In this document: in pieces, positions 3,848 to 34,937 of the stretch
How positions within the stretch are numbered: the first letter of the stretch is position 1
Layout of the letters: every line of letters begins with the position of its first letter
Virus genome (UHGV): UHGV-0094371
DNA: 40,507 nucleotides
Origin: a virus
Strand: one strand, 5' to 3'
Translations under genes and position numbers: made by a program
The notes under the pieces: generated by a model
Database searches by the model: none
What the model was told of the DNA's origin: nothing
Seen by the model: the letters and a program-made list of their open reading frames with translations, nothing else

Positions 3848-4566
3848 GTTTCACCTGCCATTACATCTTTATAGCGAACGATCTTCATTGTGCGCTCCTG
3901 CCAGTATCCGCCATAAGGAACACGTTGACTCAGATGCCCGTAAAGATGGTGCAGCAGCATGTTACCCTCCAGTAAAATCCCGGCATGATTCCACTTATCG
4001 GCCTGCACCTGCATGATGACGAGGTCCCCTTCCTGAGGCGGACCATCAAACTCCCTGAATCCGCACTCGTACCAGCACTCCTGATAGAAATTGTCCGGGT
4101 AGTCGTTTTCCCACCAGGGATAATCCACCCGGTAATCGTGGAGCTCGATACAGTGGGTCTGCCGGAAATAGCTCATTACCAGCCCCCAGCAGTCGAAGTG
4201 TCCAAGCACAAACGGACGCTCCAGCAGTGGCAGTTCTCCGCGCGGCTGGATGGTGCGTAAATCCCCCTCCGGCCAGCTCACAATATGCCAGGGTAAAAGC
4301 GTTGCGTCGCATTGCGCTTTATCCAGTTCGCTCGGCTGCGTAGTGGCGTCAGGGTGACTGTGAACGATGGCGATCACCGTACCCCAGTCCTCAGCAGCTG
4401 CATAGTCTTCTGGCGACAGGTGAAAATGTTCTGTCGGCTCGGTAGCGAGGTTACTACATGGAAAATATTTCTCTACCCGGCTCTTTTGCGCCACCACGCC
4501 GCAACACTCACGAGGATATTCAGCTGCAGCATGCGCCATAATCGCATCGATGGTTTTCTGACGCAT
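3835..4566 (-). CDS. K: tail assembly protein K (JAMM/MPN plus NlpC/P60 domains)
   Basis: 243 aa; JAMM-type HSHPdattqpSelD motif visible; conserved position between L and I. Confidence 0.85.
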   Translation of the reverse strand: MRQKTIDAIMAHAAAEYPRECCGVVAQKSRVEKYFPCSNLATEPTEHFHLSPEDYAAAEDWGTVIAIVHSHPDATTQPSELDKAQCDATLLPWHIVSWPEGDLRTIQPRGELPLLERPFVLGHFDCWGLVMSYFRQTHCIELHDYRVDYPWWENDYPDNFYQECWYECGFREFDGPPQEGDLVIMQVQADKWNHAGILLEGNMLLHHLYGHLSQRVPYGGYWQERTMKIVRYKDVMAGETCRK

Positions 4567-4567
4567 A

Positions 4568-5323
4568 TCAACTCCTGATCAGCGACGTACCCTGGAACCC
4601 ACCAAACGAGAGTTCGTTGTTTTCACCGAACCGAAGTTTGCAGGCCGTCAGCGTTCCGTTGCATTCATCCAGTGACGGATCGCTTACCTGGTTGTTGTTT
4701 TTGTCGAAATAGCGCGTACCGGCATAGTCGCAGCCGTCGCCGGTTCGGTACTTGTTCCGGATGCACCATGTGCACAGAGAATGAAGCTGGCGGGTAGGTA
4801 TCATCAGCCCCTGCAGATCCATAGGGCTGGATAGTGTGAACTCAACAACTTCATTGGTTTCACTGCTCTTTGCATCGATGTAGAAAACCTTCAGCTTCTC
4901 CTGGGTCGGATCGGCTGTCGGATTGCCTCCGGTGAAGTTTCTCGCATCGAGATACTTACCAAGGGTGTCATGTATCGTCACCTTCGCCTGCAGCATATCG
5001 TCATACGCCAGACAGAGCGCTGAGATCGAGCTGTCCAGGTTCGCCACACTCAGTTTTGGCTGTGGACTGGTACCGTCCGTAGTCGCTTCAATACCCTCAA
5101 CCTGACACGGCCAGGCTTTATACTCCTCCCCCTGCCACCAGATGGACTTCGCCGGAAGTTTATTCTCATCCCCGCCTGCAGCCTCAATCTCTTCCGGGGT
5201 ATGCGCGATATTATGTGCGTGGAAGCGGAGTACATCTGACATACCGAACGCTGTGCCATCGACAGAAAAAAGCCGGACTTCATTGCCCGGCTCGAGTTTT
5301 TGATAATCAGCATTAAGACTCAT
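4568..5323 (-). CDS. L: minor tail protein L
   Basis: 251 aa; Cys-rich C-terminus (CTWCIR...DGCDYAG...CNGTLTAC) as in lambda L; synteny. Confidence 0.85.
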   Translation of the reverse strand: MSLNADYQKLEPGNEVRLFSVDGTAFGMSDVLRFHAHNIAHTPEEIEAAGGDENKLPAKSIWWQGEEYKAWPCQVEGIEATTDGTSPQPKLSVANLDSSISALCLAYDDMLQAKVTIHDTLGKYLDARNFTGGNPTADPTQEKLKVFYIDAKSSETNEVVEFTLSSPMDLQGLMIPTRQLHSLCTWCIRNKYRTGDGCDYAGTRYFDKNNNQVSDPSLDECNGTLTACKLRFGENNELSFGGFQGTSLIRS

Positions 5324-21986: not shown

Positions 21987-22027
21987 GCTCTCACCTCGCT
22001 ACGTTGCGGGTGTCCAGTTGAGGTAAT

Positions 22028-22050
22028 AAAAAGGGCCGCGATAGCGACCC
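22028..22050 (-). terminator. hairpin plus T5 on the minus strand between the methyltransferase stop and the holin start
   Basis: minus-strand gggtcgctatcgcggccctttttatt. Confidence 0.4.
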
Positions 22051-22056
22051 AAGCTT

Positions 22057-23109
22057 TTATTCCCATGCCAGCTGCCTTACCTCACTTACCGTCTGGTTGA
22101 AACGTTCCTCTTCCAGTTCTACGCCGATAGCCTGGCGGCCCAGTTCAATGGCTGCTTTAACAGTTGATCCCGAGCCCATAAAGAAATCAGCTACCACATC
22201 GCCGGGCCTGCTGCTGGCGTTGATGATTTGCCGCAACATATCAGCGGGCTTTTCGCACGGGTGTTTGCCTGGATAGAACTGGACGGGTTTATGTGTCCAG
22301 ACGTCTGTATAGGGCACGGCTACTGTCACAGAGAAATGCCGCCGAAGAGATTTGTACTCTTCCAGCAGATCAAGGTATTTCCGGTTCAACGAATGCCATG
22401 TGGCCACCAGCTGGTGATGCGGTGCTTTGAGTTCAGAGGCGCGGTGCTTCTCAATGGCGATCTGAGTGAACAATTCCTGCAGCTTTTCGTAATCCTGCTC
22501 GTTTGGTAGTTGCCACTGACTGGTACCGAACCAGTGAGACGCCATATTTTTCTTTCCGGTAGCGTCAGCTATTTGCCTGGACGTGACCCCCAGTTCGGCT
22601 CGTGCATCACGAAAGTAGGTGATTAACGGAGCCATGACGTGCTGTTTGACCTCGTTGCTTTTCTCAGCAAATCCGTCGCTTTTCGGCTTATATGGCCCCT
22701 GATAATGCTCAGCGAAAAGGATGCGTTCCGTCGCGGGGAAGTAAGAGCGCAGGCTTTCTTTATTACAACCGTTCCAACGCCCTGATGGCTTCGCCCAGAT
22801 AATGTGGTTCATGACGTTGAAGCGTTCACGCATCATGATCTCAATATCGGATGCAAGTCGGTGACCTGAAAACAAATACAGGCTGCCGGCAGGCTTAAGC
22901 ACTCGCCAGAACTGGGCAAGACACATATCAAGCCAGCGAAGATAGTCGGCGTCACCGTTCCACTGATTATCCCAGCCGTTCGGCTTCACCTTAAAATAAG
23001 GCGGATCCGTAACAATAAGGTCGATGGTGTTATCTGGGAGGGTTGCGAGGTATTGCAGGCAGTCAGCGTTGATAAGCTCAACACTGTTTATATTTACAGT
23101 ATTTTTCAT
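22057..23109 (-). CDS. orphan DNA methyltransferase (beta-class N6-adenine/N4-cytosine, PF01555-like)
   Basis: 350 aa; motif IV DPPY near the N-terminus (IVTDPPYF) and motif I FxGxG near the C-terminus (DFFMGSGST); no adjacent restriction gene. Confidence 0.85.
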   Translation of the reverse strand: MKNTVNINSVELINADCLQYLATLPDNTIDLIVTDPPYFKVKPNGWDNQWNGDADYLRWLDMCLAQFWRVLKPAGSLYLFSGHRLASDIEIMMRERFNVMNHIIWAKPSGRWNGCNKESLRSYFPATERILFAEHYQGPYKPKSDGFAEKSNEVKQHVMAPLITYFRDARAELGVTSRQIADATGKKNMASHWFGTSQWQLPNEQDYEKLQELFTQIAIEKHRASELKAPHHQLVATWHSLNRKYLDLLEEYKSLRRHFSVTVAVPYTDVWTHKPVQFYPGKHPCEKPADMLRQIINASSRPGDVVADFFMGSGSTVKAAIELGRQAIGVELEEERFNQTVSEVRQLAWE

Positions 23110-23259
23110 AGATCCGTAAGCGTAACTCTGATAGGCTCACTATGCTTTTGCGCTAAAGCAGTGGGCCTTGGTTAGCTTGTGACCTGAAAGCATGAGCTAA
23201 TGGCTGGTTGGGTGCTACAACACCCACCAGCCGCCCATTTTCACAGCAGGAAACCGCCA

Positions 23260-23487
23260 TTACTGGCAGCGTCTGAATTTATTCCCGTACCCGCCGTTAT
23301 CCTTCGCCAGACCCGCCAGAACTAACTGAGTCAGTATTAACTGGCACCGGGCTTCGCTTACTCCGGTAGTTCTCGTCATCATGCATGGCGTTACCCACTT
23401 GTCAGCAGGTAAGAAATGAAGGACTGCGGCGGCGGTTTCTGTAATATCTTGCTGTTTTAGCATGTCTTTTTCCCTTCTGGTTAACAT
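23260..23487 (-). CDS. hypothetical small protein (75 aa)
   Basis: ORF only; between tR' and the methyltransferase. Confidence 0.3.
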   Translation of the reverse strand: MLTRREKDMLKQQDITETAAAVLHFLPADKWVTPCMMTRTTGVSEARCQLILTQLVLAGLAKDNGGYGNKFRRCQ

Positions 23488-23583
23488 GACATACCAATAA
23501 CTCTTGTCTAAAAATCCAGCAAGATAAAAAGTCAGTATTCACGACCACCAGCGTGTTTACTGTACTGCACCAAGTTTACAGGT

Positions 23584-23611
23584 ACAAAAAACCCGCTCAG
23601 TGGCGGGTTCC
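23584..23611 (-). terminator. candidate tR'-like intrinsic terminator of the short pR' leader transcript
   Basis: minus-strand aacccgccactgagcgggttttttgt, about 60 nt downstream of the predicted pR' start. Confidence 0.6.
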
Positions 23612-23655
23612 TAAATCTTATCAACGGTAGACATACAAAACCCATCGTTGGAAAA

Positions 23656-23684
23656 ATCTTATCCATATTTTTTGAAAAATGCAA
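23656..23684 (-). promoter_or_regulatory. candidate late promoter pR' (TTGCAT-N17-TAAGAT), where Q would act
   Basis: hexamers read on the minus strand about 30 bp downstream of the Q stop codon. Confidence 0.45.
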
Positions 23685-23715
23685 GCATCATGTCGTCATC
23701 TTCGGCGAAAACCAT

Positions 23716-24474
23716 TTATCTTGTCACCTTTCTCAATTGTATCTCTGCATATGCTTCTTCCTGCCAGCACTTTGTAACCAGTTTATCAATGACATCTGCA
23801 TATCCTTTGTACCACTGATAATCCGTCAGGTCTGGTACCAGCTTCTGGACATGATGCCGCGCCAGTGTGGTTGGTAAACGGCTAAACCGGTTTCCATTGC
23901 AACGCCCACAAATCTTATAAACAGGCGTGCCATGAAGCCGGGTCCTTTTTTCATCCAGGACAATACCTTTACCCTTACACCCTCTGCACGCTGTGCTGAC
24001 TTCTCCCTTACCATGACAATGCTGACATAGTTCCTTCACCCACTCTTCCTTGATAACAGATTCCCCGCTTCTGGAGTGTTTTACCACTTCGCGCAATACA
24101 TTATGAAATCCAGTACCAGCACAATGCTCACAGCGAGCCTTACTTGCCGCAGACCTGGAATAATCAGCAAAGGCAAAATTCACAAGGTAAGGGATGATCT
24201 GTAACCGGGTTTCTTCACTCAATTTATTCAATGTCGGGTTATCCAGTGCCATCGCGTAATTGAGCAGACCTTCAATCGCAAACTGAGGATCCTGAACACC
24301 AACTTTTGCCAGGAATAAGGCAAAACCCAGTGGTGCTTTCGACTGCACCATCCCCTGCGCAGCCATCACATCCGTAATCGTTAAACCACCAGAGCCTGTC
24401 GCCGGTGCGTCATCGCTCAATTTTGGAGATTTTGGGGAGTAATATTTTGGTAAGGCTTCAAGGTTCATGCTCAT
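23716..24474 (-). CDS. Q: antitermination protein Q (Qin quuQ / YdfT-like family)
   Basis: 252 aa with four CxxCxGxG zinc-finger repeats; immediately upstream of pR'/tR'; DUF968 neighbour as in the E. coli Qin prophage. Confidence 0.7.
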   Translation of the reverse strand: MSMNLEALPKYYSPKSPKLSDDAPATGSGGLTITDVMAAQGMVQSKAPLGFALFLAKVGVQDPQFAIEGLLNYAMALDNPTLNKLSEETRLQIIPYLVNFAFADYSRSAASKARCEHCAGTGFHNVLREVVKHSRSGESVIKEEWVKELCQHCHGKGEVSTACRGCKGKGIVLDEKRTRLHGTPVYKICGRCNGNRFSRLPTTLARHHVQKLVPDLTDYQWYKGYADVIDKLVTKCWQEEAYAEIQLRKVTR

Positions 24475-24481
24475 TCTCCAC

Positions 24482-25477
24482 TTACGCCAGTACGCCTATT
24501 GCCAGCGCACGATCGATAAAACGAAATATCAGCTCCAGCTGGGAGCCATACTTCTCTTCAAATGCCACGGTATCCGCATGCAGCTCGTCGTGATGCTTTC
24601 TGCACAAAGGCAACACAAAGAGGTCATGCGCTTTTGTACCCATTCCCCCCTGACCGTGGCCTATCAGGTGGTGGGGATCATCAGCGGGCTTTCCACAACA
24701 TGCACACGGCTGTGTCTTAACCCAGCGCGTGTACTTTTCATTAACCCAGCGGCGACGTTTTGGGCGTAACATAAAAGACCCCGGCGACTCCGGATCCACT
24801 TTCAGCGCCAGCACCTTTTTTGCCTTATCCTGGATGATGCTGGTGGCAGGAACCGAAGGCACAAGGTCACTTTCCCGGGTGACAGACGGCACAACAGGCT
24901 TTGGTAATCTCAGTGCCTTACGGGCTGCACTTTCCGGTAAGGCATCCGCCAGGTCATTACGAATCAGCCACCAGCACAGTTCCGGCATTGTCACAACGTG
25001 ACTATCATCAAAACCGAGATCCCGACGCACAACAGACAACACCCAGCGGGCACAGTTATCCGTTGCCATTGATTCCAGCCGTTCCGTGAACTGATCGCGC
25101 AGCTGGTTATCACAGTGCCAGCACAGACGGATTGCGCCCGGAGCGTGTCGCATTGTGGTCATGTTCTCGCTGTGCCAGTCGGAATGAGGCCACTGGCAGC
25201 CTTTTTCACGAAGTAACCAGCTTTCAAGACATTCCACGCCACCAGCACGACGGATCACTGCCTCATTGCGGAACACGGCCCGAACAGCAGGATCATCCGC
25301 CAGCGGTTGTGATGCCGCCGGAACGGCACCACTGGCAAAAGATGAATAACGTTCCGGCTCAGGCTCCAGCAGGACACGCCCCTGCATAAACAGGGGCATC
25401 AGCTCTGAACCTGGCCTGAACAATACGATCCCCATACGCGGGGCAATTTCAGGGGTCAGTAATGCTCTCACGGTCAC
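24482..25477 (-). CDS. DUF968 (YdfU-like) protein with C-terminal HNH-type zinc-finger nuclease motif
   Basis: 331 aa; CACCGKP...HHLIGHG...CRKHHDELH motif. Confidence 0.7.
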   Translation of the reverse strand: MTVRALLTPEIAPRMGIVLFRPGSELMPLFMQGRVLLEPEPERYSSFASGAVPAASQPLADDPAVRAVFRNEAVIRRAGGVECLESWLLREKGCQWPHSDWHSENMTTMRHAPGAIRLCWHCDNQLRDQFTERLESMATDNCARWVLSVVRRDLGFDDSHVVTMPELCWWLIRNDLADALPESAARKALRLPKPVVPSVTRESDLVPSVPATSIIQDKAKKVLALKVDPESPGSFMLRPKRRRWVNEKYTRWVKTQPCACCGKPADDPHHLIGHGQGGMGTKAHDLFVLPLCRKHHDELHADTVAFEEKYGSQLELIFRFIDRALAIGVLA

Positions 25478-25478
25478 C

Positions 25479-26288
25479 TCAATGAACGGTATCGAGCAGC
25501 TTTAACAGCTCAGGGAATCGGGATTCGAAGAAATGCGGCTGCGTCTCGCGCGGATTTGCGGGACTGGTGATGTTCTTGCCGAACATGCAACCTTTCGCTG
25601 TCAGCGACCAGAATTTTTTGATGTTGTTAATCGCGGTACGGCTGTATCGTTCGCGCTGCTCGACGATCCCCAGTTTCACCATCTGGTGATATGCCTGATT
25701 AGCCGTCAGGCGTATACCATACTGTTTCAGCAGTGCACTCAGTGACAGTGTCGGGCGACTTGAGCCATCGTGTGCATCAGCAGGAGCATCAATGGCATAG
25801 CGCGGTGCCAGATTCGGTAAGCCAACAGCCTCCTGGAGTTTCTGACAGGCACCAAGCACTGAAGAGTTAGACAGGTTTAACTCCCGGCGCATAAAGTCCA
25901 GCAGGATCACGCCAGCCTGCATCTTGTCAGCAGCCTGCCCGGATAATTTTTCCGGTGCGCTGGTTACCATATCGAAAGTACGGATCACCTTCAGATGGAA
26001 TGACGGGCTGATCCACATTGCATAGGCATACACCAGTTCCTTGCAGACATACGTTCCCCGTTCATTTCCCCCATGAATCACACTCACCGGGTCAACACCC
26101 AAATTCTGGGTATTGGTCAATTCATGAACAAGCTCAACAGTTTGTTGGCTGGAAAGAAACTTTCCTGGCTCCTTGGTTCTGGCATTTGCACCAGATGCTA
26201 CTGCTGCGCGATGCAGATCGTTCAGGCTGTAACGCCCATAAGCATCACGACGAACTTCAATACCATCAATAACCATCAGATTATTCAT
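25479..26288 (-). CDS. KilA-N domain protein (antirepressor-like)
   Basis: 269 aa; N-terminal GRYSLNDLHRAA...GTYVCKELVYAYAMWISPSFHLKVIR. Confidence 0.7.
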   Translation of the reverse strand: MNNLMVIDGIEVRRDAYGRYSLNDLHRAAVASGANARTKEPGKFLSSQQTVELVHELTNTQNLGVDPVSVIHGGNERGTYVCKELVYAYAMWISPSFHLKVIRTFDMVTSAPEKLSGQAADKMQAGVILLDFMRRELNLSNSSVLGACQKLQEAVGLPNLAPRYAIDAPADAHDGSSRPTLSLSALLKQYGIRLTANQAYHQMVKLGIVEQRERYSRTAINNIKKFWSLTAKGCMFGKNITSPANPRETQPHFFESRFPELLKLLDTVH

Positions 26289-26307
26289 ACTTCGTTTCTC
26301 CTCTTAA

Positions 26308-26697
26308 TCAGGCGGCTGCACCCGCCGTTTTCTCGTACTTACTGATAGTGATCTCGACCTTCCCTTCCGGGATAACCGGCCCCCACTCCACCAGCATTCT
26401 TTTCACCTGGCTGTCGTCCACCCACACACCCGCGTGGGTCAGGGCGTCAAACAGCGCCTTGTTATAGTTGTCCAGATCGCGAAGCCGGTTATCCGGAGGA
26501 AACAACACGATCTCCACTGAAGCTGGTGCCGACGTTGGTTTCGGCAGACGACGTAACTGCTCAATGATGGCTGCACACGCTGCGCTCTGGAATTTTCGCC
26601 CCGCCGCGCTTATCAGGCTCTTACCTGCAAGCGCCCCTTTGTTGGGGTGTCGCCAGTACGTGTTCACGCTGGGCGGAAAAGGCAGTATTAGCTTCAT
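26308..26697 (-). CDS. rusA: Holliday junction resolvase RusA
   Basis: 129 aa; LPFPPSVNTYW...DLDNYNKALFDALTHAGVWVDDSQV. Confidence 0.85.
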   Translation of the reverse strand: MKLILPFPPSVNTYWRHPNKGALAGKSLISAAGRKFQSAACAAIIEQLRRLPKPTSAPASVEIVLFPPDNRLRDLDNYNKALFDALTHAGVWVDDSQVKRMLVEWGPVIPEGKVEITISKYEKTAGAAA

Positions 26698-27020
26698 ACT
26701 TTCAGGCCCCTCTCATGTAACCAGTGGGCTGCACGCAGCCTGGCGTTTGCCTCACCGGCAAGCAGTGCGCGGATAATCCCGACCGCCTCGCTGTCGTCGT
26801 CCTTCACCGCGGTATGAAGCGTGATGCCCCGGGCCACGCCACGCTTTATCGTGATGACGCCTTTTTTCTCCAGTGCGCGAAGATGCTCCACCGCTGCATT
26901 CACTGAACGGTATCCCAGCATGGTTGCCACCTCCTGATTGGTTGGCGGGAAGCCACGTTCTTTCTGATAAGAAATCAGCATATCCAGCACCTGCTGCTGG
27001 CATTGAGTTAACGTAGTCAT
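26694..27020 (-). CDS. LexA-type winged-helix DNA-binding protein lacking the S24 peptidase domain
   Basis: 108 aa from the ATG at 27020; MTTLTQCQQQVLDMLISYQKERGFPPTNQEVATMLGYRSVNAAVEHLRALEKKGVI resembles the LexA N-terminal domain as recalled; ATGA overlaps on both sides. Confidence 0.6.
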   Translation of the reverse strand: MTTLTQCQQQVLDMLISYQKERGFPPTNQEVATMLGYRSVNAAVEHLRALEKKGVITIKRGVARGITLHTAVKDDDSEAVGIIRALLAGEANARLRAAHWLHERGLKV

Positions 27021-27514
27021 TAAGCCCCCACGTAATTCCCTGACAGATACCACTCTTCACCCGATGCAGCGCGCTTGCTGCTTTTCCGTAAACACCGTTC
27101 ACGACGCGCCAGAAAATTGTTTCGTTCTGGCTGGGAGTGGCTTTCACGGAATGCCTCCATCCACACCGTTGCAGCACGACGGTATAAGCCCCTCGACTCC
27201 AGTTCTTCAGCCTGGCGGGTCAGGCACAAAATCACCCGGGGGGCGTTAGTGCCGACATAGAACTTGCGCACAGGTCTGGTTTCACAAACTGGTTGTGGTT
27301 CCGGCTCCTGCGCTCTCTCAGTCAGGCGCGAGAAATGTCTGCGTGTATCTCCTTCACAACGGTGAGCCACACGCCCACTCTGACGTAACTTGCTTGCTGA
27401 CTGCAGAACGCGCTGCCGTGAGTAACCTGCAAAAGCATCCGCAATGTCTCCGGAAGTACACCCCGGATGGGCTTCAATGAATTTCTGAACTTCATTCAAA
27501 AGACTCATGATCAC
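27020..27514 (-). CDS. putative PerC/Pch-family transcriptional regulator
   Basis: 164 aa; C-terminal LESRGLYRRAATVWMEAF...RRERCL resembles the PerC/Pch signature as recalled. Confidence 0.45.
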   Translation of the reverse strand: MIMSLLNEVQKFIEAHPGCTSGDIADAFAGYSRQRVLQSASKLRQSGRVAHRCEGDTRRHFSRLTERAQEPEPQPVCETRPVRKFYVGTNAPRVILCLTRQAEELESRGLYRRAATVWMEAFRESHSQPERNNFLARRERCLRKSSKRAASGEEWYLSGNYVGA

Positions 27515-28452
27515 CCCCTGAATCCTGCCGGGATCTGGCTGTAGTCCACGTTGTCGTAACTGGATTTGAAGTACGGATCTTCACGTTTTTCTGTGTATGT
27601 GCTGACGGACGGCGATAAGCGCAGGGAAAGCTCATCCCATTTTTCCCGCAGCTTCGACGGGCTGAGCACGTTACGGCACCAGAACGGATCGCGGCTGACG
27701 CGGCTGTACATCTCGCAGATTTGTTTGTGAGTACGACCATCCTGCACACACATCAGGCGAATTTCGTTTGCCCAGGCTGTCCAGTTCGGTTCTTTGGGAC
27801 GAACCACCTCGCCGTCACATTCGGCAGCCTGCTCGTACAGGGCGATGATTTTTTTCCAGAGCCACTGTGCGCAGGTCAAATCATCCTGCGTCCCCCACTG
27901 GCGTTTTTTAGGGCTGAATACAACCGCATCAGGATGGCGAGTTAAAAAATCCTGTTCAGCCGTCTGCGTGTCCGGTTGCGAAGCGTCCGGACGAGAAGGT
28001 TTTTTATCTGACGGATCATGTTTTGATTTTACTGACGGATCCCCGCCAGATTCTGACGGGTGAAAACCCGCTTTTTTGCCAGATTTCGACGCATCAAATT
28101 TTGACGGGTCAGATTTTGATGCGTCAGATTTTGACGGGTCAGAATCTGACAGTTGAGAAAATGCCGCTGCCTGAAGCTTCGCAACGTTAAGCTGATAAAC
28201 ATTCGACGCATTGCGGTTACCCTGGCGACGCGCCTTACGCGTTAACCAGCCTTCTGCTTCCAGCCGTGCGATAGCCGTTCTGACGGTACTCATCCCCGCG
28301 CCAATCTGGCGGGCAATGGTTTCAATTGATGGCCAGCACACACCTTCGTCATTACTGAAATCAGCCAGGCGGGCCATAATTGCCACGCTGGATAATTTCA
28401 TGCCTGACGCTGCGCAACCATCCCATACATAGCCGGTTAATTTAGTGCTCAT
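27511..28452 (-). CDS. replication initiator (lambda O-like); N-terminal HTH, repeat linker, C-terminal domain
   Basis: 313 aa; lambda O position after cro/CII-like; iteron array inside the gene; SKSD peptide repeats. Confidence 0.65.
   Translation of the reverse strand: MSTKLTGYVWDGCAASGMKLSSVAIMARLADFSNDEGVCWPSIETIARQIGAGMSTVRTAIARLEAEGWLTRKARRQGNRNASNVYQLNVAKLQAAAFSQLSDSDPSKSDASKSDPSKFDASKSGKKAGFHPSESGGDPSVKSKHDPSDKKPSRPDASQPDTQTAEQDFLTRHPDAVVFSPKKRQWGTQDDLTCAQWLWKKIIALYEQAAECDGEVVRPKEPNWTAWANEIRLMCVQDGRTHKQICEMYSRVSRDPFWCRNVLSPSKLREKWDELSLRLSPSVSTYTEKREDPYFKSSYDNVDYSQIPAGFRG
28006..28155 (-). repeat. ori-like iteron array: about 8 imperfect direct repeats of (A)GATTTTGACGGGTC, the last five spaced exactly 15 bp apart
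   Basis: repeat units at 28006, 28030, 28050, 28084, 28099, 28114, 28129 and 28144. Confidence 0.65.
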
Positions 28453-28461
28453 GACCGACCT

Positions 28462-28800
28462 CTATTTCCCTGAATTTACGACGAAACTGTTCGAGCGGAC
28501 TGAAGCACTCATACTCATAGCCTTCGCGGAGGTAGATAACCCGTTGTGTTTCCGGTTCCCAACGAATGACTCTGACGGGCACTCCGTAGTGATCTTTGAA
28601 CCAGCGGTTAACTTGTCGCAAAGGACTGTCTCCTTCTGCCGGTTGAAATCACCCACAGCCCACTCTGCAAAGCTGTGGGTTACAATTACCCTGTCACCTG
28701 GTACATTTACTGCATAGCAATACTCCACCTTCGCTTTTCCACCCGGTACAGGAAGCGCAATCAGTTGCGAGCGACGGTAGTGTGTTGTTAAACTGTTCAT
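28462..28800 (-). CDS. hypothetical protein (112 aa)
   Basis: ATGA start/stop overlap with the upstream CII-like gene; no family recognised. Confidence 0.4.
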
Positions 28801-29348
28801 GCGTTAGTTTCTCCACAGTCACGACACGCCACGGCGCCCGGAGCTGCACACTCGCGGGCGTCACTACTTTCTGAAACGCAAAAGATTTTGTAGACCAGTG
28901 CTGCATGCTCCTGCAGCTTCGAAATTGAGAGGTACAGCTCATCGTTAATTGCTGTCTTCTCATGCGGTTCCACTACACCGTCTTCAATTGCTGAACGAAT
29001 CTGTTTTGAATAACTGCCGATCTGTTCAATGACCTCCAGCAGGCGTTGGTTGATATCGGCGTTGTCCACATCCTCGATGTCAGGAAGAGACACAAATACG
29101 CCATTTGCAGACTGCGCCACAGCATCAGCAATGAAGTGAGTGCCACCAGCACGCTGTAAAACCATTGCCCATCCCAGCGGGAAAATCTGATCGCCATCTG
29201 CACGAAGGCGGTTGAATAAAGCGTTTTCTGTTACATCGAGCCAATCAGCCGCTTCAGCGTAACCACCCGGCAACGCCGCGATAGTTTTTCTGACAGCTTT
29301 CACGTACCACTCAGGCTGTTTTTCTATTTTCCAGTGATGCTTACCCAC
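28797..29348 (-). CDS. putative CII-like regulator (YdaT / CP76-like)
   Basis: 183 aa directly downstream of cro; family assignment from memory only. Confidence 0.4.
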
Positions 29349-29601
29349 GGTTCACCTCCTGTTCCTGTGGTTTAAACCCATTCTGGTTTTGGCTAGATTG
29401 AAAACGTGCCGGATAAAGAATCTGCATTTCGCTGATTTCACCCTTAAAAAAATTGGCTAAACGTTCTGCAAGCTCGATAGATGGAATCTGCTCCAGCCTC
29501 TCAATACGACTCAACGTCGCTGGATTGACTTGAACACCCGCAGCAACATGCTGCAAAGTGAAACCATGCGCCTTACGCACATTTCGTAATGGTGATTGCA
29601 T
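29341..29601 (-). CDS. cro: Cro-like HTH (XRE family) repressor
   Basis: 86 aa; HTH (FTLQHVAAGVQVNPATLSRIE); divergent from cI across a 97-bp operator region. Confidence 0.75.
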   Translation of the reverse strand: MQSPLRNVRKAHGFTLQHVAAGVQVNPATLSRIERLEQIPSIELAERLANFFKGEISEMQILYPARFQSSQNQNGFKPQEQEVNRG

Positions 29602-29698
29602 ATATCCTCCAAATATTGCGCGTTATGCATGTTATTTCACGCAAGTATTTTGCGCAAGTTGATTTGCTTATCACGCAATAAAGAAATGTAATAAACGC
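29602..29698. promoter_or_regulatory. cI-cro divergent promoter/operator region with two inverted-repeat sites (TTGCGYG-N15-CRCGCAA) and an 8-bp perfect palindrome TTGCGCAA
   Basis: half-sites at 29616-22 / 29638-44 and 29650-57 / 29672-78. Confidence 0.55.
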
Positions 29699-30391
29699 AT
29701 GAACATAGGAAAACGAGTCAGACAACTTCGCCAAGCGAAGAACATGAAAATCGCCGATCTCGCTGAAGCAATAGGAGTAGATGCGGCGAACATCTCGCGC
29801 TTAGAAACGGGTAAGCAGAAACAATTTACCGAACAAACACTGAGTAATATTGCCAAGAGCTTAGGTGTTGATATTGCTGATCTCTTTACCTCTGCCCTCA
29901 AAAGTAATACTGTATATAAAAACAGTAATGATGAGGATGTTGCGCAGGTGAAGGATGTGTTCCGTATTGAAATGTTGGATATCAGTGCCAGTGCGGGAAA
30001 TGGCCTTATCCAGGGCGGTGATGTCATTGATGTGATTCATGCCATCGAATACAGAACTGATAATGCTGTATCAATGTTCGGCGGACGACCAGCCAATCAC
30101 ATCAAAGTTATCAACGTTCGTGGGGACAGTATGTGTCCAACCATTGAGCCAGGAGATCTCATCTTCGTTGATGTCAGCATCAATCAGTTTGATGGTGATG
30201 GTATATATGTCTTTGGTTTTGATGACAAAATATACGTTAAAAGACTTCAAATGATTCCTGACAAACTGCTGGTGATTTCTGATAACCAGATTTACCGTGA
30301 ATGGGGAATTACTAGCGAAAACGAACACCGATTCATGGTCTTTGGAAAGGTCTTAATCAGTCAGTCGCAAACCCTTAAGAGACATAATTAA
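29699..30391 (+). CDS. cI: CI-type prophage repressor (N-terminal HTH plus C-terminal S24 LexA-like peptidase)
   Basis: 230 aa; HTH IADLAEAIGVDAANISRLE; S24 motifs RGDSMCPTIEPGDL and YVKRL. Confidence 0.9.
   Translation: MNIGKRVRQLRQAKNMKIADLAEAIGVDAANISRLETGKQKQFTEQTLSNIAKSLGVDIADLFTSALKSNTVYKNSNDEDVAQVKDVFRIEMLDISASAGNGLIQGGDVIDVIHAIEYRTDNAVSMFGGRPANHIKVINVRGDSMCPTIEPGDLIFVDVSINQFDGDGIYVFGFDDKIYVKRLQMIPDKLLVISDNQIYREWGITSENEHRFMVFGKVLISQSQTLKRHN
29908..29927. promoter_or_regulatory. near-consensus LexA (SOS) box TACTGTATATAAAAACAGTA inside the cI coding sequence
   Basis: CTGT-N8-ACAG with flanking TA/TA; 2 mismatches to TACTGTATATATATACAGTA, both in the AT spacer. Confidence 0.5.
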
Positions 30392-30410
30392 CTTCAATAT
30401 CCCATCCATC

Positions 30411-30433
30411 GGCCACCGAAAGGTGGCTTTTTA
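30411..30433 (+). terminator. intrinsic terminator after cI (GCCACC-GAAA-GGTGGC then T5)
   Basis: direct reading, 20 nt after the cI stop. Confidence 0.65.
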
Positions 30434-30683
30434 TCACCCATAATTTTGCACATCTCGCAAAATATTACTTGCGTATATCGCATTTTAATTTTATCTTTTG
30501 TTCCAGACCAACTACAGGATTACAACAAAATCTAGTTGCAACACGGTGCATGGTGCATGTGTCGTAAGCGGTCAGTAATTGTCAAAAACGAACAGTCAGG
30601 ACGACCACGAAGTAGCCGCCGGTGGCGTATGAATGACCGGATGATTCGCTGACAGAAAACTTAGGTTGGGGGTAGAGGTTTAC

Positions 30684-31049
30684 ATGAATCATTTATTCAC
30701 ATGCTCATTTTGCGGAGCAACCGAACTGGGAGCGATAAAGATCGTCGCAAAAGGTGGTAAGGACGAACCTGCCATCTGTTCGGAATGCGTAGTCACATGT
30801 GTAGAAAAAATGATCCTGACTAAAAAATCAGAGGCTGAAAAACCAACCTCTGATAACGAAATAATATCAGTCGATAAAAAACTATTTAAAGAGCTTCTTC
30901 AGCTTGTCCTCAACCATCCTGATTTCGGAAGTAAGCTGGCTGCTGTTGACATTGATAGTAGCTCCACATCGACAAGTGAAACTTTTGTTCGACTTGAGCC
31001 AAGCGATTTTCTTCTTCGTCTTAGTGCCGCACTTAGGGCATGCGGGTAA
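30684..31049 (+). CDS. stand-alone ClpX-type C4 zinc-finger (ZBD-like) protein
   Basis: 121 aa from the ATG at 30684 (GAGG RBS 6 nt upstream); CSFCG-x20-CSEC resembles the ClpX N-terminal zinc-binding domain as recalled. Confidence 0.55.
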   Translation: MNHLFTCSFCGATELGAIKIVAKGGKDEPAICSECVVTCVEKMILTKKSEAEKPTSDNEIISVDKKLFKELLQLVLNHPDFGSKLAAVDIDSSSTSTSETFVRLEPSDFLLRLSAALRACG

Positions 31050-31079
31050 CGTAATTTCCTGGTTATCAAAAGCGCCCAT
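30882..31079 (-). CDS. hypothetical zinc-ribbon protein (65 aa), antisense to the 3' end of the ClpX-ZBD ORF
   Basis: CPKCG...CRCG zinc ribbon; AGAGGG RBS 7 nt upstream of the 31079 ATG; one of the two overlapping ORFs may be spurious. Confidence 0.35.
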   Translation of the reverse strand: MGAFDNQEITLPACPKCGTKTKKKIAWLKSNKSFTCRCGATINVNSSQLTSEIRMVEDKLKKLFK

Positions 31080-31227
31080 AAACATCCCTCTTGGTTGTGT
31101 GAGAACACCAAGATACCACCGCGCCTGATGTGGTTAAAAGCAGGCTAAAGCAATAACAAGTAACTCCCTGTTCTGGCGGCCCGGTGTTTTCCCGTGTATT
31201 TCCGGTAACCGCCAGCCTTTTTCAGGG

Positions 31228-31339
31228 CACAACAGAAAAGGGCATCACCGGGCGACGGGCTCATAACCCAATCCACCCGGGCAAAAAGAAAGCGGTCTCT
31301 GCAAGCCGCCGACCAATGCAGGTGCCCTTCTCTGTTGTG
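31228..31339. repeat. 17-bp inverted repeat (cacaacagaaaagggca / tgcccttctctgttgtg, 1 mismatch) with a 78-nt spacer
   Basis: arms at 31228-31244 and 31323-31339. Confidence 0.5.
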
Positions 31340-31496
31340 TATGGAGAAACTAACTTTTTAGCGCCGGTGCAGAGGCGTTGAGGAACCGAGAATGAACAAT
31401 CCGTTTTTCAAAAATATGGGGTATTCGGGATAAGTAGTTGTTGAAGACCTTTTGCACAGATCTGCAATTCATTTTTATAGACGGTGAAAGTTGTTG

Positions 31497-31525
31497 TTGA
31501 CCTCCTGATCGGATTCCTATAGTGT
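31497..31525 (+). promoter_or_regulatory. candidate early-left promoter (TTGACC-N17-TAGTGT)
   Basis: hexamers read directly; a weak hairpin plus T6 lies at about 31569-31594. Confidence 0.3.
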
Positions 31526-31630
31526 TTGTCTCACGAGGCGTCGAAACCTCTTCTCAGTGCGGTCAGAACCAACCCCGACAGTGTTGGCTTTTTTATGTCT
31601 GTCATTCAGTGAACGCATAGCGCGGTCACA

Positions 31631-31734
31631 TCCCGATCAATGTCGGGAGGGCGACTAATACAACACCCTTACGGGGAATAAGTCCGCGGTCTCACTGAGC
31701 CGTTTCGAACCTCCCGGCACCACTCCGATAGTGG
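31631..31734 (+). promoter_or_regulatory. structured leader upstream of the KilA-N gene with mutually exclusive pairings
   Basis: segment tcgggagg (31643-50) can pair with tcccga (31631-36) or with cctcccggca (31710-19, 10 bp with one G-U); a further hairpin at 31720-34. Confidence 0.35.
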
Positions 31735-31761
31735 TAATTCGAAAAAATCAGTGAGGTCATT

Positions 31762-32622
31762 ATGACTACCCAAATCATCATCTCCGATATCTCTATCCAT
31801 CAGGATTCAAAAGGTCGTTATTCAATCAACGATCTGCATAAAGCTGCTGGCGCTGAACATCGCCACCTGCCTAACTACTGGCTTGAACTACAGCAGACCA
31901 AAGAGTTAATCGAAGAGATTCTAAATACCGGAATCCCGGTAATTAACCCTCCGGTAGCCAGCAGAAAGGGCCGTTACGGTGGCACCTACGTATGCAAAGA
32001 GTTGGTTTACTCCTACGCCATGTGGATCAGCGCCGCTTTTGCACTCAAGGTGATCCGGGCATATGACGCGCTGGTATCTGGCAATGTGGAAGTGAAGCCA
32101 AAGGTTCGCCAGTGTACGGCAACCCAACTCACCCCGCTGCGCCAAACAGCAGAACGGTTAATCACAACTGGCCTCGGCAAAATCTATCCCGACATCTGGA
32201 AGCTGGTTCATCAGCGCTTCGATGTTGAGCATATCCACCAGTTGCAGCCTGAGCAGGTCGGTGAAGCCATCGAGTACCTGAACGTGCTGGAAGGTGAGTA
32301 CCTGGGGCGCGAGACACTTCCGGCAACCCCATCAGTGCATTTCACCAACGAGGAGCTTTGCGCTCTCTGCTGGGTATGGAATGCCGCCGAATACATGCGG
32401 GAGAAGATAGAGCTGGCCTATCCCGCAATGAAAACTCTCAAGTCTGAATACGCACCGAGCTTCTACTCAATGGCATTTGAGTATCAGCGAACACTGGAAG
32501 CCGGTAGAAAGGTTCTCGAACGGGAAACAAAACACATCGTTCCTCATCCTCACAGCGTGTCAGATGAAAACTGGCGGCGAGTCCTGCCTCGTCTGCGCCA
32601 AAATAGCTTACCTCGCGGATAA
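31762..32622 (+). CDS. KilA-N domain protein (paralogue of 25479-26288)
   Basis: 286 aa; GRYSINDLHKAA...GTYVCKELVYSYAMWISAAFALKVIR. Confidence 0.7.
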   Translation: MTTQIIISDISIHQDSKGRYSINDLHKAAGAEHRHLPNYWLELQQTKELIEEILNTGIPVINPPVASRKGRYGGTYVCKELVYSYAMWISAAFALKVIRAYDALVSGNVEVKPKVRQCTATQLTPLRQTAERLITTGLGKIYPDIWKLVHQRFDVEHIHQLQPEQVGEAIEYLNVLEGEYLGRETLPATPSVHFTNEELCALCWVWNAAEYMREKIELAYPAMKTLKSEYAPSFYSMAFEYQRTLEAGRKVLERETKHIVPHPHSVSDENWRRVLPRLRQNSLPRG

Positions 32623-32636
32623 TAAGGGACAAAACG

Positions 32637-33959
32637 ATGAGCGAGATTGCACCAACGAGCCTGTTACACCCTCTGAAAGCTACCGTTCTGGATTTTCAGG
32701 AGGATGAGCACGACTATCAGTTCAAGGTTGAATACCCGGAGCCGACCTGCTGCCATGCCTGCGGTGCAGTGTCTGACATCATCCGCTTTAACAAAAAGCT
32801 GGTGAAGTACCGGGATGTTCCCATGCACGGGAAGCGCGTCACGCTCTGGGTCGTAACACGCCGTTATCAGTGCAAATCATGCAAAGGCACATTCACCCCG
32901 GCCATCCCCGAGATGGCCGAAGCCCACCGCATGACAAAGCGCTGCTATCAGTACATCATTAAACGTGCGCTGACCGGCACTAACGCCAGCGTCGCGCAAG
33001 ATGTTGGCTTTGATGAGTCCGTCACCCGTGGGGTCATCAAGTCCTACTGCGAGCAAAAGGCGAAGACCTATAAGCCTGTGCTGCCGCGAGTGCTGGGCAT
33101 TGATGAGCTGTACCTGAACAAAACCTTCCGCTGTGTCCTGACCAACATCGAGCAGGGAACCATTATTGACATACTGGAATCCCGGCAAAGTAACGTCATC
33201 TACAACCGTCTGGCGCATATGGAAGGCCGTGAGAACGTGCAGATCGTCTGTCAGGATATGTGGAAGCCATACCGTGACGTTGCCAGCCAGCTATTCCCTA
33301 AAGCCAGCATCGTCGTTGACCGCTTCCATATCCAGCGCATGGCTAACGAGGCGATGGAAACGCTGCGTAAGTCGCTCAAAAAGGATCTGACAGTACACCA
33401 CCGACGGCAGCTTAAAGGCGACCGTAAGATGATGTTGATGCGTAAGCGTGACCTTAACCCTATGCAGCAGATGATTATCGAAACGTGGCTGGATCACTAT
33501 CCTGAGTTGGGTCTGGCCTATCAGCTCAAGGAAGAGTTCTTTGATATCTGGCTGGCACAGACTGAACCTGAGGCCAGAATGCGCTATCAGAACTGGCTGG
33601 CAAAGATACCCGATCATCATAAAAAGCACTGGAAGCCGCTGATAACATCCATGACGAACTGGGAGAAAGAGATATTCGCCTACTTCGGCCCGGCCCAGCG
33701 GAAGACCAACGCCTTTACGGAATCCATCAACCGCAAGATGCGCGATCTGAACCGTGATTCGCGCGGAATGTCCTTTGAGATGTTCAGGGCTAAAACACTG
33801 TTCACTCTCAAGCATAAGTTCAGCAAGCCTAAACCAGTGAAAGAATCACCGTTCACGGTTGGCTATGTCACCGCTGGTTCGTGGGATCTGGATGATGAAA
33901 TCCGGGACGATTACGGCGTATCTATCGACGCTATTCTGGAATCCAAAATCGGCGAATAA
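32637..33959 (+). CDS. ISL3-family DDE transposase homologue (zinc ribbon plus DDE domain), with no terminal inverted repeats found
   Basis: 440 aa; N-terminal CCHACG...CKSCKG; LGIDE, VCQDMWKPY, DRFHI and TNAFTESINRKMRDLNR motifs resemble the ISL3 signature as recalled; starts 15 nt after the KilA-N stop. Confidence 0.6.
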   Translation: MSEIAPTSLLHPLKATVLDFQEDEHDYQFKVEYPEPTCCHACGAVSDIIRFNKKLVKYRDVPMHGKRVTLWVVTRRYQCKSCKGTFTPAIPEMAEAHRMTKRCYQYIIKRALTGTNASVAQDVGFDESVTRGVIKSYCEQKAKTYKPVLPRVLGIDELYLNKTFRCVLTNIEQGTIIDILESRQSNVIYNRLAHMEGRENVQIVCQDMWKPYRDVASQLFPKASIVVDRFHIQRMANEAMETLRKSLKKDLTVHHRRQLKGDRKMMLMRKRDLNPMQQMIIETWLDHYPELGLAYQLKEEFFDIWLAQTEPEARMRYQNWLAKIPDHHKKHWKPLITSMTNWEKEIFAYFGPAQRKTNAFTESINRKMRDLNRDSRGMSFEMFRAKTLFTLKHKFSKPKPVKESPFTVGYVTAGSWDLDDEIRDDYGVSIDAILESKIGE

Positions 33960-34043
33960 ATAGCCGCCAACAACACACCCATCATTTTCCATTCAACGGG
34001 GTTCGGGATGTCCTAACAACAGGATTTCCCGAATACCCAAAAT

Positions 34044-34937
34044 ATGTTGGTGTATCGCATTAGTCGCGATTTCACCATCAACCAGGAAGAGCTGGAACAG
34101 CAGCTTGAACTATTTCGCTTCACTCCATGCGGTAGCCAGGATATGGCAAAAACCGGTTGGGTATCACCACTTGGTCAGCTGTCAGATCGCTTGCATCACA
34201 CTGTCAATAATCAAGTGTTGTTGGTTATTCGCCGGGAAGAAAAAATACTGCCATCTCCTGTCATTGCTGAAGAACTGCGCAAGCGTGTGTCGCGTCTGGA
34301 ATCCGATCAGGGGCGTCGCCTCAAAAAAACTGAGAAAGATTCGCTGCGTGATGAAGTGTTGCACTCCCTGCTTCCTCGGGCGTTCTCCAAAAACTCGACT
34401 GTTAGTTTGTGGATCAACGTCACCGACGGTCTGATCATGGTTGATGCAGCCAGCGCTAAACGTGCCGAAGACTCACTGGCCCTGCTTCGTAAAACTCTCG
34501 GTTCTCTCCCGGTGGTACCGCTGACTATGGAAACGCCGATCGAACTAACTATGACCGAATGGGTTCGTTCCGGTAGTGCGCCTGCTGGCTTTGGGCTGGG
34601 TGATGAAGCCGAACTGAAAGCCATTCTTGAAAATGGCGGTATCGGACGCTTTAAAAAACAGGCTCTGGTCAGCGACGAAATTCATGTGCATCTGGAAGCT
34701 GGCAAAGTAGTTACAAAGCTGTCTATCGACTGGCAACAGCGCATTCAGTTCGTTCTTTGCGATGACGGCAGCATCAAGCGCCTTAAGTTCTCTGATGAGC
34801 TGACAGAACAAAACGACGATATCGACCGTGAGGATGCGGCTCAGCGGTTCGACGCTGACTTTGTTCTGATGACCGGCGAGCTTATCTCTCTCATTAACGG
34901 ATTAACAACCTCTCTCGGCGGCGAAGCCAAGCGATAA
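34044..34937 (+). CDS. rdgC: recombination-associated protein RdgC homologue
   Basis: 297 aa; collinear with E. coli RdgC as recalled ([47 protein letters not shown]...LGGEA). Confidence 0.85.

Follow-up and report, generated by a model that had tools for sequence, protein, structure and literature searches.

Introduction

The immI region of phages P1 and P7 has the layout a1 b1 - c4 - a2 b2/icd RBS - icd - ant, and its RNA elements are represented in Rfam by the C4 (RF01695) and c4-a1b1 (RF03163) families. As summarised in PMC8201110, C4 of phage P1 controls ant via icd (Citron & Schuster 1990, cited there). At the Gifsy-1 locus, read-through of the IsrK terminator generates a translationally silent mRNA, which the short IsrK RNA activates in trans, and the processed RNA STnc1160 is found downstream (PMC4825925). 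The same authors compared this locus with P4 seqA/CI (PMC4825925). The Rfam model of isrK comprises two target-bearing hairpins and an intrinsic terminator.

The founding member of the sRNA-Xcc1 family (RF02221), an integron-cassette sRNA of Xanthomonas campestris (Xcc 8004), is a discrete 88-nt RNA (PMC2996969). Other members are located upstream of an ORF6N gene in APSE phages (PMC7313666) and upstream of symE in Xanthomonas cassettes (bioRxiv 10.1101/2025.06.18.660453), and the symE case shows that sRNA-Xcc1 also precedes other toxic genes. The literature examined treats sRNA-Xcc1 as a generic or virulence-linked sRNA. No description of complementarity between its loop and an RBS or a leader was found in the part of the openly searchable full-text literature that was covered.

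Here, a leader upstream of a KilA-N gene is analyzed in a 40,507-nucleotide stretch of viral DNA (UHGV-0094371), hereafter referred to as the window. A first-pass annotation had described this leader as the structured leader of the first early-left gene of a phage with no recognisable N gene. As judged from its sequence and that of its relatives, the leader is probably a three-site antisense switch of the C4/IsrK kind, built on an sRNA-Xcc1 scaffold, that masks the KilA-N RBS in the passenger operon of an insertion sequence (IS).

Results

The leader belongs to an insertion sequence that splits rdgC

The leader is surrounded by a lambdoid prophage (Table 1), in which rdgC, a 5'-nucleotidase-like gene and small ORFs are all oriented rightward. 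Segment 31050-31418 is 98.6-100% identical to prophages of many E. coli genomes, including Nissle 1917. In Nissle 1917, the equivalent segment runs directly into rdgC, the annotated ATG of which corresponds to window position 31393. The ends of the IS were mapped by aligning the window both with the Nissle prophage and with the frvR locus of E. coli GMM060, another insertion site. In the alignment with IS-free relatives, represented by the Nissle prophage, position 31418 joins straight to 34047. The IS is inserted at codon 9 of the prophage rdgC gene and is flanked by an 8-bp target duplication, AAAATATG (left copy, 31411-31418; right copy, 34039-34046). The 24-bp terminal inverted repeats (19/24 identical), the 8-bp duplication, a DDE_Tnp_ISL3 transposase and copies at unrelated sites all place the element in the ISL3 family. 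The whole IS occupies 13 places in E. coli GMM060, frvR among them. One further complete E. coli genome carries it, and eight Klebsiella/Enterobacter plasmids have it at 94.7% identity.

The IS carries a KilA-N gene, the product of which matches anti-repressor PHROGs, and a transposase gene. The two genes are separated by a 14-nt gap, and the transposase Shine-Dalgarno (SD) sequence overlaps the KilA-N stop codon. The left end of the IS, the leader and a Bro-N or KilA-N gene also occur in two prophages without the transposase or the right end; a search for the right inverted repeat (IRR) near the solo left ends of strains GF131 and 167 did not find it. Because the IS interrupts rdgC, the KilA-N gene is a passenger of the IS; the true first early-left gene is rdgC, which the IS has split. 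The annotation of the window is corrected to a prophage early-left operon that is interrupted by an IS, the supposed first early-left gene being the passenger.

This location bears on the earlier suggestion that the leader is a put-type antitermination RNA, as in HK022, or a classical attenuator, and that it replaces N in the early-left operon. A promoter-proximal terminator and alternative helices do exist in the leader. Moreover, Pfam and PHROGs gave no N-like protein among the ORFs scanned around cI, rdgC and downstream, as had been noted from the sequence. However, the element is carried by an IS that sister prophages lack; it is thus not the leader of the phage's first early-left gene and cannot be the phage's N substitute. 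The element has no similarity to the PL/putL region of HK022, as the comparison with HK022 22000-30000 (which contains PL) gave only chance matches of 9-12 nt. The same module is also found as an autonomous unit in other genomic surroundings, and the covariation described below aims at an RBS and a leader decoy and not at RNA polymerase. The terminator is present and conserved, but no convincing conserved antiterminator helix was established for an attenuator. An antiterminator or attenuator that stands in for N is scarcely credible at this position.

The real early-left leader (31086-31400) is strongly structured (-114.6 kcal/mol, z -3.55) and contains a 55-nt core that is conserved in SfV, mEp460, ST64B and Stx2c phages. 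It has no Rfam match. For N-independent antitermination in this phage, 31086-31400 is the place to look.

Table 1. Features of the prophage, the insertion sequence and the leader RNA in the window
Feature	Position	Strand	Basis or remark
CII/CP76-like gene	28797-29348	-	ORF, Pfam/PHROGs scan
cro-like gene	29341-29601	-	ORF, Pfam/PHROGs scan
LexA/CI-type repressor	29699-30391	+	ORF, Pfam/PHROGs scan
ClpX-zinc-finger ORF	30666-31049		ORF, Pfam/PHROGs scan
rdgC 5' fragment of prophage	31393-31418	+	ATG 31393, as annotated in Nissle 1917 prophage
ISL3-family IS, 2620 bp (passenger module and transposase gene)	31419-34038	+	Comparison with uninterrupted Nissle prophage and frvR copy
IRL, GGGTATTCGGGATAAGTAGTTGTT	31419-31442	+	19/24 positions equal reverse complement of IRR
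Sigma-70-like promoter, TTGACC (31497-31502), 17-nt spacer, TAGTGT (31520-31525)	31497-31525	+	Sequence reading
5' leader hairpin, GAGGCGUCGAAACCUC	31535-31550	+	Loop holds b1
b1, UCGAAA	31541-31546	+	Complementary to b'; in leader-hairpin loop
a1, CUCAGUG	31553-31559	+	Complementary to P3 loop
Intrinsic-terminator-like hairpin, CCAAC...GUUGG then U6	31569-31594	+	Stem invariant in 18 leaders
Spacer hairpin, GUGAACGC-AUA-GCGCGGUCAC	31609-31629	+	Compensatory changes
CCCGAU, alternative upstream partner of stem-P1 5' strand	31632-31637	+	Used by MFE of full leader
sRNA-Xcc1-family RNA (RF02221)	31642-31726	+	Stem P1, 31642-50 with 31710-18; P2, 31653-84; P3, 31686-31703
Stem-P1 5' strand, GUCGGGAGG	31642-31650	+	Pairs with CCCGAU (31632-37) or CCUCCCGGC (31710-18)
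a', P3 loop CUCACUGA, hypervariable address	31691-31698	+	Complementary to a1 and a2
b', UUUCGAA, single-stranded junction between P3 and stem-P1 3' strand	31703-31709	+	Complementary to b1 and b2
Hairpin ACCAC-UCCGAUA-GUGGU directly after stem P1	31719-31735	+	Contains ACC following closing stem
b2, UUCGAAA	31738-31744	+	Complementary to b'
a2, UCAGUGAG	31748-31758	+	Complementary to a'; G-U pairs extend to GUC; overlaps SD
KilA-N SD, GAGG; ATG	31753-31756; 31762	+	SD overlapped by a2
Passenger gene, KilA-N + P22AR C-terminal domain protein, antirepressor-type, 286 aa	31762-32622	+	Pfam, PHROGs
ISL3-family transposase (DDE_Tnp_ISL3 + Zn ribbon)	32637-33959	+	Pfam E 3.4e-59
IRR, AACAACAGGATTTCCCGAATACCC	34015-34038	+	Imperfect inverted copy of IRL
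Rest of rdgC with right target duplication copy (34039-34046)	34039-34937	+	ORF reopens at ATG 34044, within duplication

The leader contains an RNA of the sRNA-Xcc1 family

An Rfam scan, which the first-pass annotation had recommended together with RNAfold predictions and a covariation analysis of relatives, matched 31642-31726 to sRNA-Xcc1 over model positions 1-87 with a score of 70.4 bits (gathering score 53; E 5.9e-11 for the window). It was the only model matched in 30400-31800; the C4, c4-a1b1, isrK, put-like and riboswitch models gave no match there at E ≤10. The RNA is a three-way junction with two single-stranded address elements, a' in the P3 loop and b' at the P3/P1 junction. The internal loop of P2 (AAUACAA / GGGGAAUA) is invariant.

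The address elements are complementary to two pairs of sites, one on each side of the RNA. Downstream, the perfect match of a2 ends at position 31755, with the KilA-N ATG 6 nt beyond, and the KilA-N RBS is the sole exact a2 match in the 40.5-kb window. Upstream, b1 and a1 are located within the first 25 nt of the transcript, directly 5' of the intrinsic terminator. Of two further a2-like words, the one at 31553 is a true a1 site, as its covariation shows. The other, UUCAGUGA at 31607, was rejected as a target: it forms part of the spacer hairpin and does not change in relatives that have different addresses. A leader peptide was likewise rejected: a conserved AUG just 5' of stem P1 starts a reading frame of 13 codons in the window, but relatives do not preserve this frame.

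The elements that had been read from the sequence are present and conserved. The promoter-like hexamers occupy the same position (TTGAC-N17-TAnnnT) in four diverged modules, the surrounding sequences of which differ. The weak terminator hairpin, with its U-run, and the hairpin just before the RBS are also conserved, and the 5' strand of stem P1 can indeed form either of two mutually exclusive helices. In a four-way alignment with modules of Stx phages, phi330 and a Vibrio phage, the promoter position, 5' hairpin, terminator, spacer hairpin and Xcc1 motif are all conserved. Homology to phage modules starts at ~31531-31535, right after the -10 hexamer. The original description of a structured regulatory leader thus holds for the existence of the RNA, for the terminator close to the promoter and for the alternative pairings 5' of the KilA-N RBS, but not for a replacement of N.

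The minimum free energy (MFE) structure of 31534-31775 has an energy of -74.1 kcal/mol with z -2.0, a value that is modest on energy alone. In this structure, the a'-a2 and b'-b2 helices are formed over the SD sequence, and the 5' strand of stem P1 pairs with the upstream CCCGAU segment. The calculated duplex energy of a'b' is -20.9 kcal/mol with the b2a2 target and -19.1 kcal/mol with the b1-a1 decoy. The terminator stem is weak (5 bp) and is absent from the MFE structure of the leader alone.

The address elements covary with the RBS and with an upstream site

Relatives were fetched by the invariant P2 pattern, which gave at least 120 viral and at least 120 genomic loci; the 208 unique instances analyzed are among the matches listed. 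In these relatives, the 7-9 nt leading into the SD sequence of the next ORF form the reverse complement of the P3 loop a', and the b2 site is found 3-5 nt further upstream of a2. Among the matches listed, a perfect a'-a2 helix of at least 7 nt is formed by 64 of 100 cognate pairs vs 39 of 1483 (2.6%) non-cognate pairs, and a b'-b2 helix of at least 6 nt by 71 of 87 cognate vs 159 of 1237 non-cognate pairs. For the upstream sites, an a1 helix of at least 7 nt is found in 74.5% of the 208 listed cognate cases vs 10.8% of non-cognate ones, and a b1 helix of at least 6 nt in 77% of the listed cognate cases vs 23% of non-cognate ones. A T-run of at least five residues is located between a1 and the motif in 133 of 155 listed instances. 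An ATG is found near the 3' end of a2 in 108 of 118 listed matches, mostly 6-11 nt downstream (mode, 9 nt). At least 101 distinct address words occur among the matches listed; the pairing words differ between relatives and change together, as in the pair CUCGUUGA/UCAACGAG of relative L014.

For a set of 18 near-identical enterobacterial leaders, the covariation was resolved at the level of individual base pairs. None of the scaffold helices (P1, P2, P3 and terminator) varies in this set, and variation is concentrated in the recognition helices. Both sides are changed in six of eight a'-a2 pairs, six of seven a'-a1 pairs, two of six b'-b1 pairs and two of five b'-b2 pairs, and the b'-b1 helix is paired in 100% of cells. 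Observed pairing amounts to 93-97% of cells, compared with 30-54% in slid-partner controls, and the observed covariation score was reached by none of 500 shuffles. Tolerance of G-U pairs is restricted to the + strand, an argument for RNA pairing over DNA pairing.

Two procedures were replaced. Owing to misalignment of stem P1, RNAalifold retrieved no more than the P2 tip and P3 from a plain MAFFT alignment of 69 motifs, so the Rfam structure and a hand-mapped structure on the 18-sequence alignment were used. Whole-segment duplex energies separated cognate from non-cognate pairs poorly (-21.4 vs -19.0 kcal/mol) because the conserved stems dominate, and tests of the longest perfect helix were used instead.

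The upstream and downstream sites do not always occur together. Among the matches listed, 57 of 208 relatives have b1-a1 without a2 at the RBS, including the Xanthomonadales subfamily with the founding sRNA-Xcc1, and RBS masking is therefore not universal. Neither site is found at the strict threshold in 33 of the 208 listed. The interaction with the leader and terminator may be the ancestral function.

These patterns can be set against the original proposal from Xanthomonas, a free-standing trans-acting sRNA that controls unlinked host genes such as a virulence regulon. The published family annotation (PMC2996969; Chen et al. 2011 as cited in PMC7313666 and PMC12189769), and the discrete RNA in Xcc are in its favor. 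However, a hypervariable address that covaries with sites no more than 170 nt away on either side is unexpected for a conserved host target, and in the window the only exact match of a2 is the RBS next to it. Unlinked host genes as the targets are very improbable.

Related modules are autonomous and precede antirepressor-type genes

Homologous modules precede antB/ant in Stx2 phages and phi330, and one precedes kilA-N in the tail cluster of a Vibrio phage. Xcc1 modules are found in tail regions, in nin regions and on plasmids, and these different genomic places and orientations identify them as autonomous units. One Stx phage carries tandem Xcc1 modules with different addresses. In phi330, two modules are arranged back to back: the first consists of c4-a1b1/isrK, C4 and an anti-repressor gene, and the second of b1-a1, a terminator and sRNA-Xcc1, followed by Ant. 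C4-family covariance models do match phi330. By reading, the loop of the phi330 C4 RNA (GGUUUC) matches GAAACC beside the SD sequence, and its junction (CGCCAA) matches UUGGCG upstream.

The genes downstream of the Xcc1 motif are mostly of the antirepressor type. Among 87 ORFs directly 3' of the motif in viral contigs, Pfam identified P22_AR_C in 20, KilA-N in 19, P22_AR_N in 14, AntA in 11, Rha in 10, Bro-N in 10 and ORF6N in 9. In a Pseudomonas subfamily, b2-a2 is located on a short, icd-like ORF ahead of a larger one.

The identity of these genes also bears on a riboswitch-like leader, in which the invariant P2 internal loop would sense a ligand or protein and gate the pairing. P2 is the most conserved part of the family, with the pattern AATACAANACCCNNNNGGGGAA exact in at least 240 loci, and antisense pairing alone leaves this conservation unexplained. 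However, the downstream genes encode regulators and not metabolic or transport proteins, and P2 could equally be a folding scaffold, a determinant for RNase P or Hfq, or a tertiary contact. Sensing is quite improbable as the explanation, and it would add a layer to the antisense mechanism, not replace it.

A further possibility is a strictly cis translational operator, in which the leader fold sequesters the SD sequence and b1-a1 serves as an internal anti-sequestor, with neither processing nor a trans-acting sRNA. This arrangement is what the MFE structure of the whole leader depicts, with both target helices formed in cis, and it agrees with the constant adjacency of target and regulator in the relatives listed (motif-to-ATG distance, 40-52 nt). 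On the other hand, the founding member is a discrete RNA (PMC2996969), and some subfamilies (L003-type and L085/L103) have, as read by eye, a promoter-like TTGAC-N17-TAnnnT sequence between the motif and the target. In addition, a CC dinucleotide follows stem P1 within 4 nt in 172 of 208 instances among the matches listed, as in processed C4. Hypervariable addresses and tandem modules with different addresses also fit best if cross-talk in trans matters. A purely cis-acting operator is accordingly regarded as unlikely.

Discussion

In the antisense switch proposed for the IS leader, a'b' would pair with b2a2 and mask the RBS, so that KilA-N stays untranslated. The pairing would be possible within the read-through transcript and probably also takes place in trans, through a stable RNA of ~85 nt cut from the leader. 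Action in trans after excision is backed by the 88-nt RNA of Xcc, the promoter-like sequences between motif and target and the tandem modules. The b1-a1 pair would compete for a'b' and may be a decoy, either in the same transcript or as a terminated leader RNA of ~60 nt, in the manner of short IsrK. Another possible role of b1-a1 is to make termination at 31594 dependent on binding of the Xcc1 RNA, a coupling that has been proposed for P4 CI RNA. Each module would owe its specificity to the hypervariable a' word. As the transposase gene starts 14 nt after KilA-N, its expression would probably be lowered too through its position in the operon.

The weakest steps of the proposed mechanism are the direction of the b1-a1 effect, the involvement of RNase P and any effect on transposition. 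The position of the leader terminator 5' of the Xcc1 RNA counts against the antisense switch. The C4 precursor is reportedly an RNase P substrate (Hartmann et al. 1995, as cited in PMC4919922). In the window, the ACC after stem P1 is base-paired in the hairpin at 31719-31735 and fits a simple RNase P substrate poorly.

On a broader scale, it is quite possible, and is put forward tentatively, that Xcc1-family RNAs form a second widespread and unrecognised class of C4-like 'RNA immunity' regulators. Here, an ISL3 element would have co-opted such a module, and its resident copies could repress the KilA-N-transposase operon of others in trans, which would amount to an RNA-based copy-number control of an ISL3 element. 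The two-part address, P3 loop plus junction, would then provide phages, integron cassettes and ISs with orthogonal, programmable on/off control. The proposed antisense switch would explain why phages, integrons and symbiont phages have members of the family beside KilA-N, ORF6N, Ant and symE genes. It also offers a testable function for a family whose Rfam annotation has for 15 years been that of a virulence-linked trans-acting sRNA of Xanthomonas, and more than 100 natural orthogonal address words on one scaffold are of practical interest for RNA switch design.

Comparison with known systems

The window RNA is a full-length, above-threshold member of the sRNA-Xcc1 family, with the same three-way junction and the same invariant P2 loop. 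It differs from the family as annotated, which is trans-acting and virulence-linked, in that it resides in an IS upstream of KilA-N. Of the two sites, the Xanthomonadales members have the upstream b1-a1/terminator site alone; the window copy has, in addition, b2-a2 on the RBS.

The window RNA resembles HK022 put only in being structured, encoded in cis and close to a promoter in a lambdoid setting. In contrast to put, the window element is not at PL or PR, and RNA polymerase is not its covarying partner. IS10 RNA-OUT is likewise an antisense RNA encoded by an IS and able to pair with the RBS of the first gene in the IS operon. However, RNA-OUT originates from the opposite strand of the transposase 5' end, whereas the window regulator is structured and located upstream on the same strand. 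Moreover, the window RNA would mask the RBS of a passenger gene, with only an indirect effect on the transposase envisaged. The phi24B 24B_1 RNA, reported to affect an antirepressor (PMC4426718), was also considered; its locus has no Rfam match, and it is regarded as unrelated.

The IsrK/STnc1160/orf45-anrP and P4 seqA-CI-seqC loci share with the window a short terminated leader RNA with target-like sites, a read-through mRNA silenced by long-range pairing, a processed stable RNA downstream and an antirepressor-like gene, the processing and silencing being predicted in the window. Unlike IsrK, the window leader does not match the isrK model and consists of ~60 nt with one hairpin and a terminator.

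The closest architectural parallel is C4. Both RNAs are located upstream of an antirepressor-type gene (in the window, KilA-N + P22_AR_C) in a co-transcribed layout, and both consist of a closing stem and two hairpins with recognition elements in the loop of the second hairpin and in the junction that follows. The Rfam consensus of C4 likewise has two hairpins, the second of them with a large variable loop, and a single-stranded junction. In both systems, the two single-stranded elements match a pair of sites that overlaps an RBS, and duplicate target sites are present upstream; for the Xcc1 RNA, both pairs of sites covary with the elements. The flanks are similar, in that AUGG precedes the stem and CC follows it at a short distance, and the two kinds of module are found in tandem in phi330. 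The differences are also clear. Stem P1 has 9 bp compared with 17 bp in C4, P2 of Xcc1 is long with a conserved internal loop, and b1 and a1 are not both in hairpin loops. In addition, the masked RBS is that of KilA-N itself and not that of a small coupled ORF such as icd. Because no C4, c4-a1b1 or isrK covariance model matches the window, the relation to C4 is architectural, without demonstrated homology, and the element is filed under sRNA-Xcc1. If the proposed switch is correct, the logic of phage P1 C4, IsrK and P4 CI, with a leader decoy, a processed antisense RNA and a masked RBS, would extend to a different scaffold across Proteobacteria.

The early-left leader and the interrupted rdgC gene

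The true early-left leader of the prophage lies upstream of rdgC (31086-31400, + strand) and has a predicted folding energy of -114.6 kcal/mol (z -3.55 relative to shuffled sequence), making it much more stable than shuffled controls. The leader contains a 17-nt inverted repeat and a 55-nt core that exhibits ~91% conservation in SfV, SfIV, mEp460, ST64B, cdtI and Stx2c phages. An Rfam scan of residues 31086-31400 returned no match, and similarity to the HK022 PL/putL region was not found over the same interval. The IS splits rdgC after codon 9. The target duplication provides an in-frame ATG for the rdgC remainder, which means that transcription of this region, if it occurs, could still yield a product shortened by eight residues. 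Two predicted ORFs, a ClpX-type zinc-finger ORF and a 67-aa zinc-ribbon ORF, overlap on opposite strands.

Coordinates of features in and around the early-left leader and the left end of the IS
Feature	Position	Strand	Remark
Terminator	30854-30827		good; 3' of 67-aa zinc-ribbon ORF
ClpX-type zinc-finger ORF	within 30666-31085	+	predicted; phrog_20296
67-aa zinc-ribbon ORF	30882-31085	opposite	predicted
17-nt inverted repeat	31228-44 / 31323-39		early-left leader
55-nt conserved core	31228-31282		early-left leader
rdgC, split	31393-31418 and 34039-34937		
In-frame ATG, rdgC remainder	34044		
Direct repeat AGTTGTTGAAGACC	31436-31449		IS left end
Direct repeat AGTTGTTGTTGACC	31489-31502		IS left end
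Terminator loop CCCGAC	31574-31579		Xcc1 leader
P1 5' strand GUCGGG	31642-31647		Xcc1

The left end of the IS

The two direct repeats at the left end of the IS are candidate transposase-binding sites and resemble the GTTGTT motif found in both IS inverted repeats. The leader promoter has its -35 hexamer within the second repeat. The IS left inverted repeat and leader are also present in E. coli GF131 (L247, ~4001-5102) and E. coli strain 167 (L248, ~4001-4619), where they are followed by a Bro-N or short KilA-N gene. In both loci, the ISL3 transposase and the right inverted repeat are absent within 4 kb. Either these solo left ends are what remains of an IS, or the passenger module came from them.

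Possible alternative pairing of the terminator loop

The terminator loop is complementary to the 5' strand of P1, the closing stem of the sRNA-Xcc1 (Xcc1) RNA, and its sequence (CCCGNNAG) is kept across enterobacterial and Pseudomonas leaders. Pairing between the two segments may constitute a further alternative structure.

Tandem modules and other target layouts

The nin region of phage phi330 (L124, 2380-3902) carries two modules in tandem, a C4 module (c4-a1b1/isrK, C4 and an anti-repressor gene) and an Xcc1 module (leader, Xcc1 and Ant). In Stx phage P14437 (L123, 2440-3240), two complete Xcc1 modules stand in tandem and differ in their address loops (CUUUGAAG vs UCUUUUGG). The first module sits ahead of an unannotated AntA-like ORF of 94 aa that begins at 2703. 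ORF11 of this phage, annotated on the opposite strand, overlaps the Xcc1 RNA. The published 'microRNA-size' 24B_1 RNA of phage phi24B was considered as a relative of Xcc1 or C4 modules and rejected as unrelated; its locus (L126, 44800-47800) matched no Rfam family at gathering thresholds.

Founder-type copies in Xanthomonas (L130, L135, L172, L198 and L230) and related Xanthomonadales loci have the upstream covarying b1-a1 pair and terminator, and a site complementary to Xcc1 was not found at the RBS of their downstream genes (a symE-like ORF of 89 aa in some, ORFs of 212-255 aa in others). In Pseudomonas (L128, L132, L162 and L194), the b2-a2 pair overlaps the beginning of a short ORF that lies ~80 nt ahead of a larger ORF, an arrangement that recalls icd-ant of P1 and orf45-anrP of Gifsy-1.
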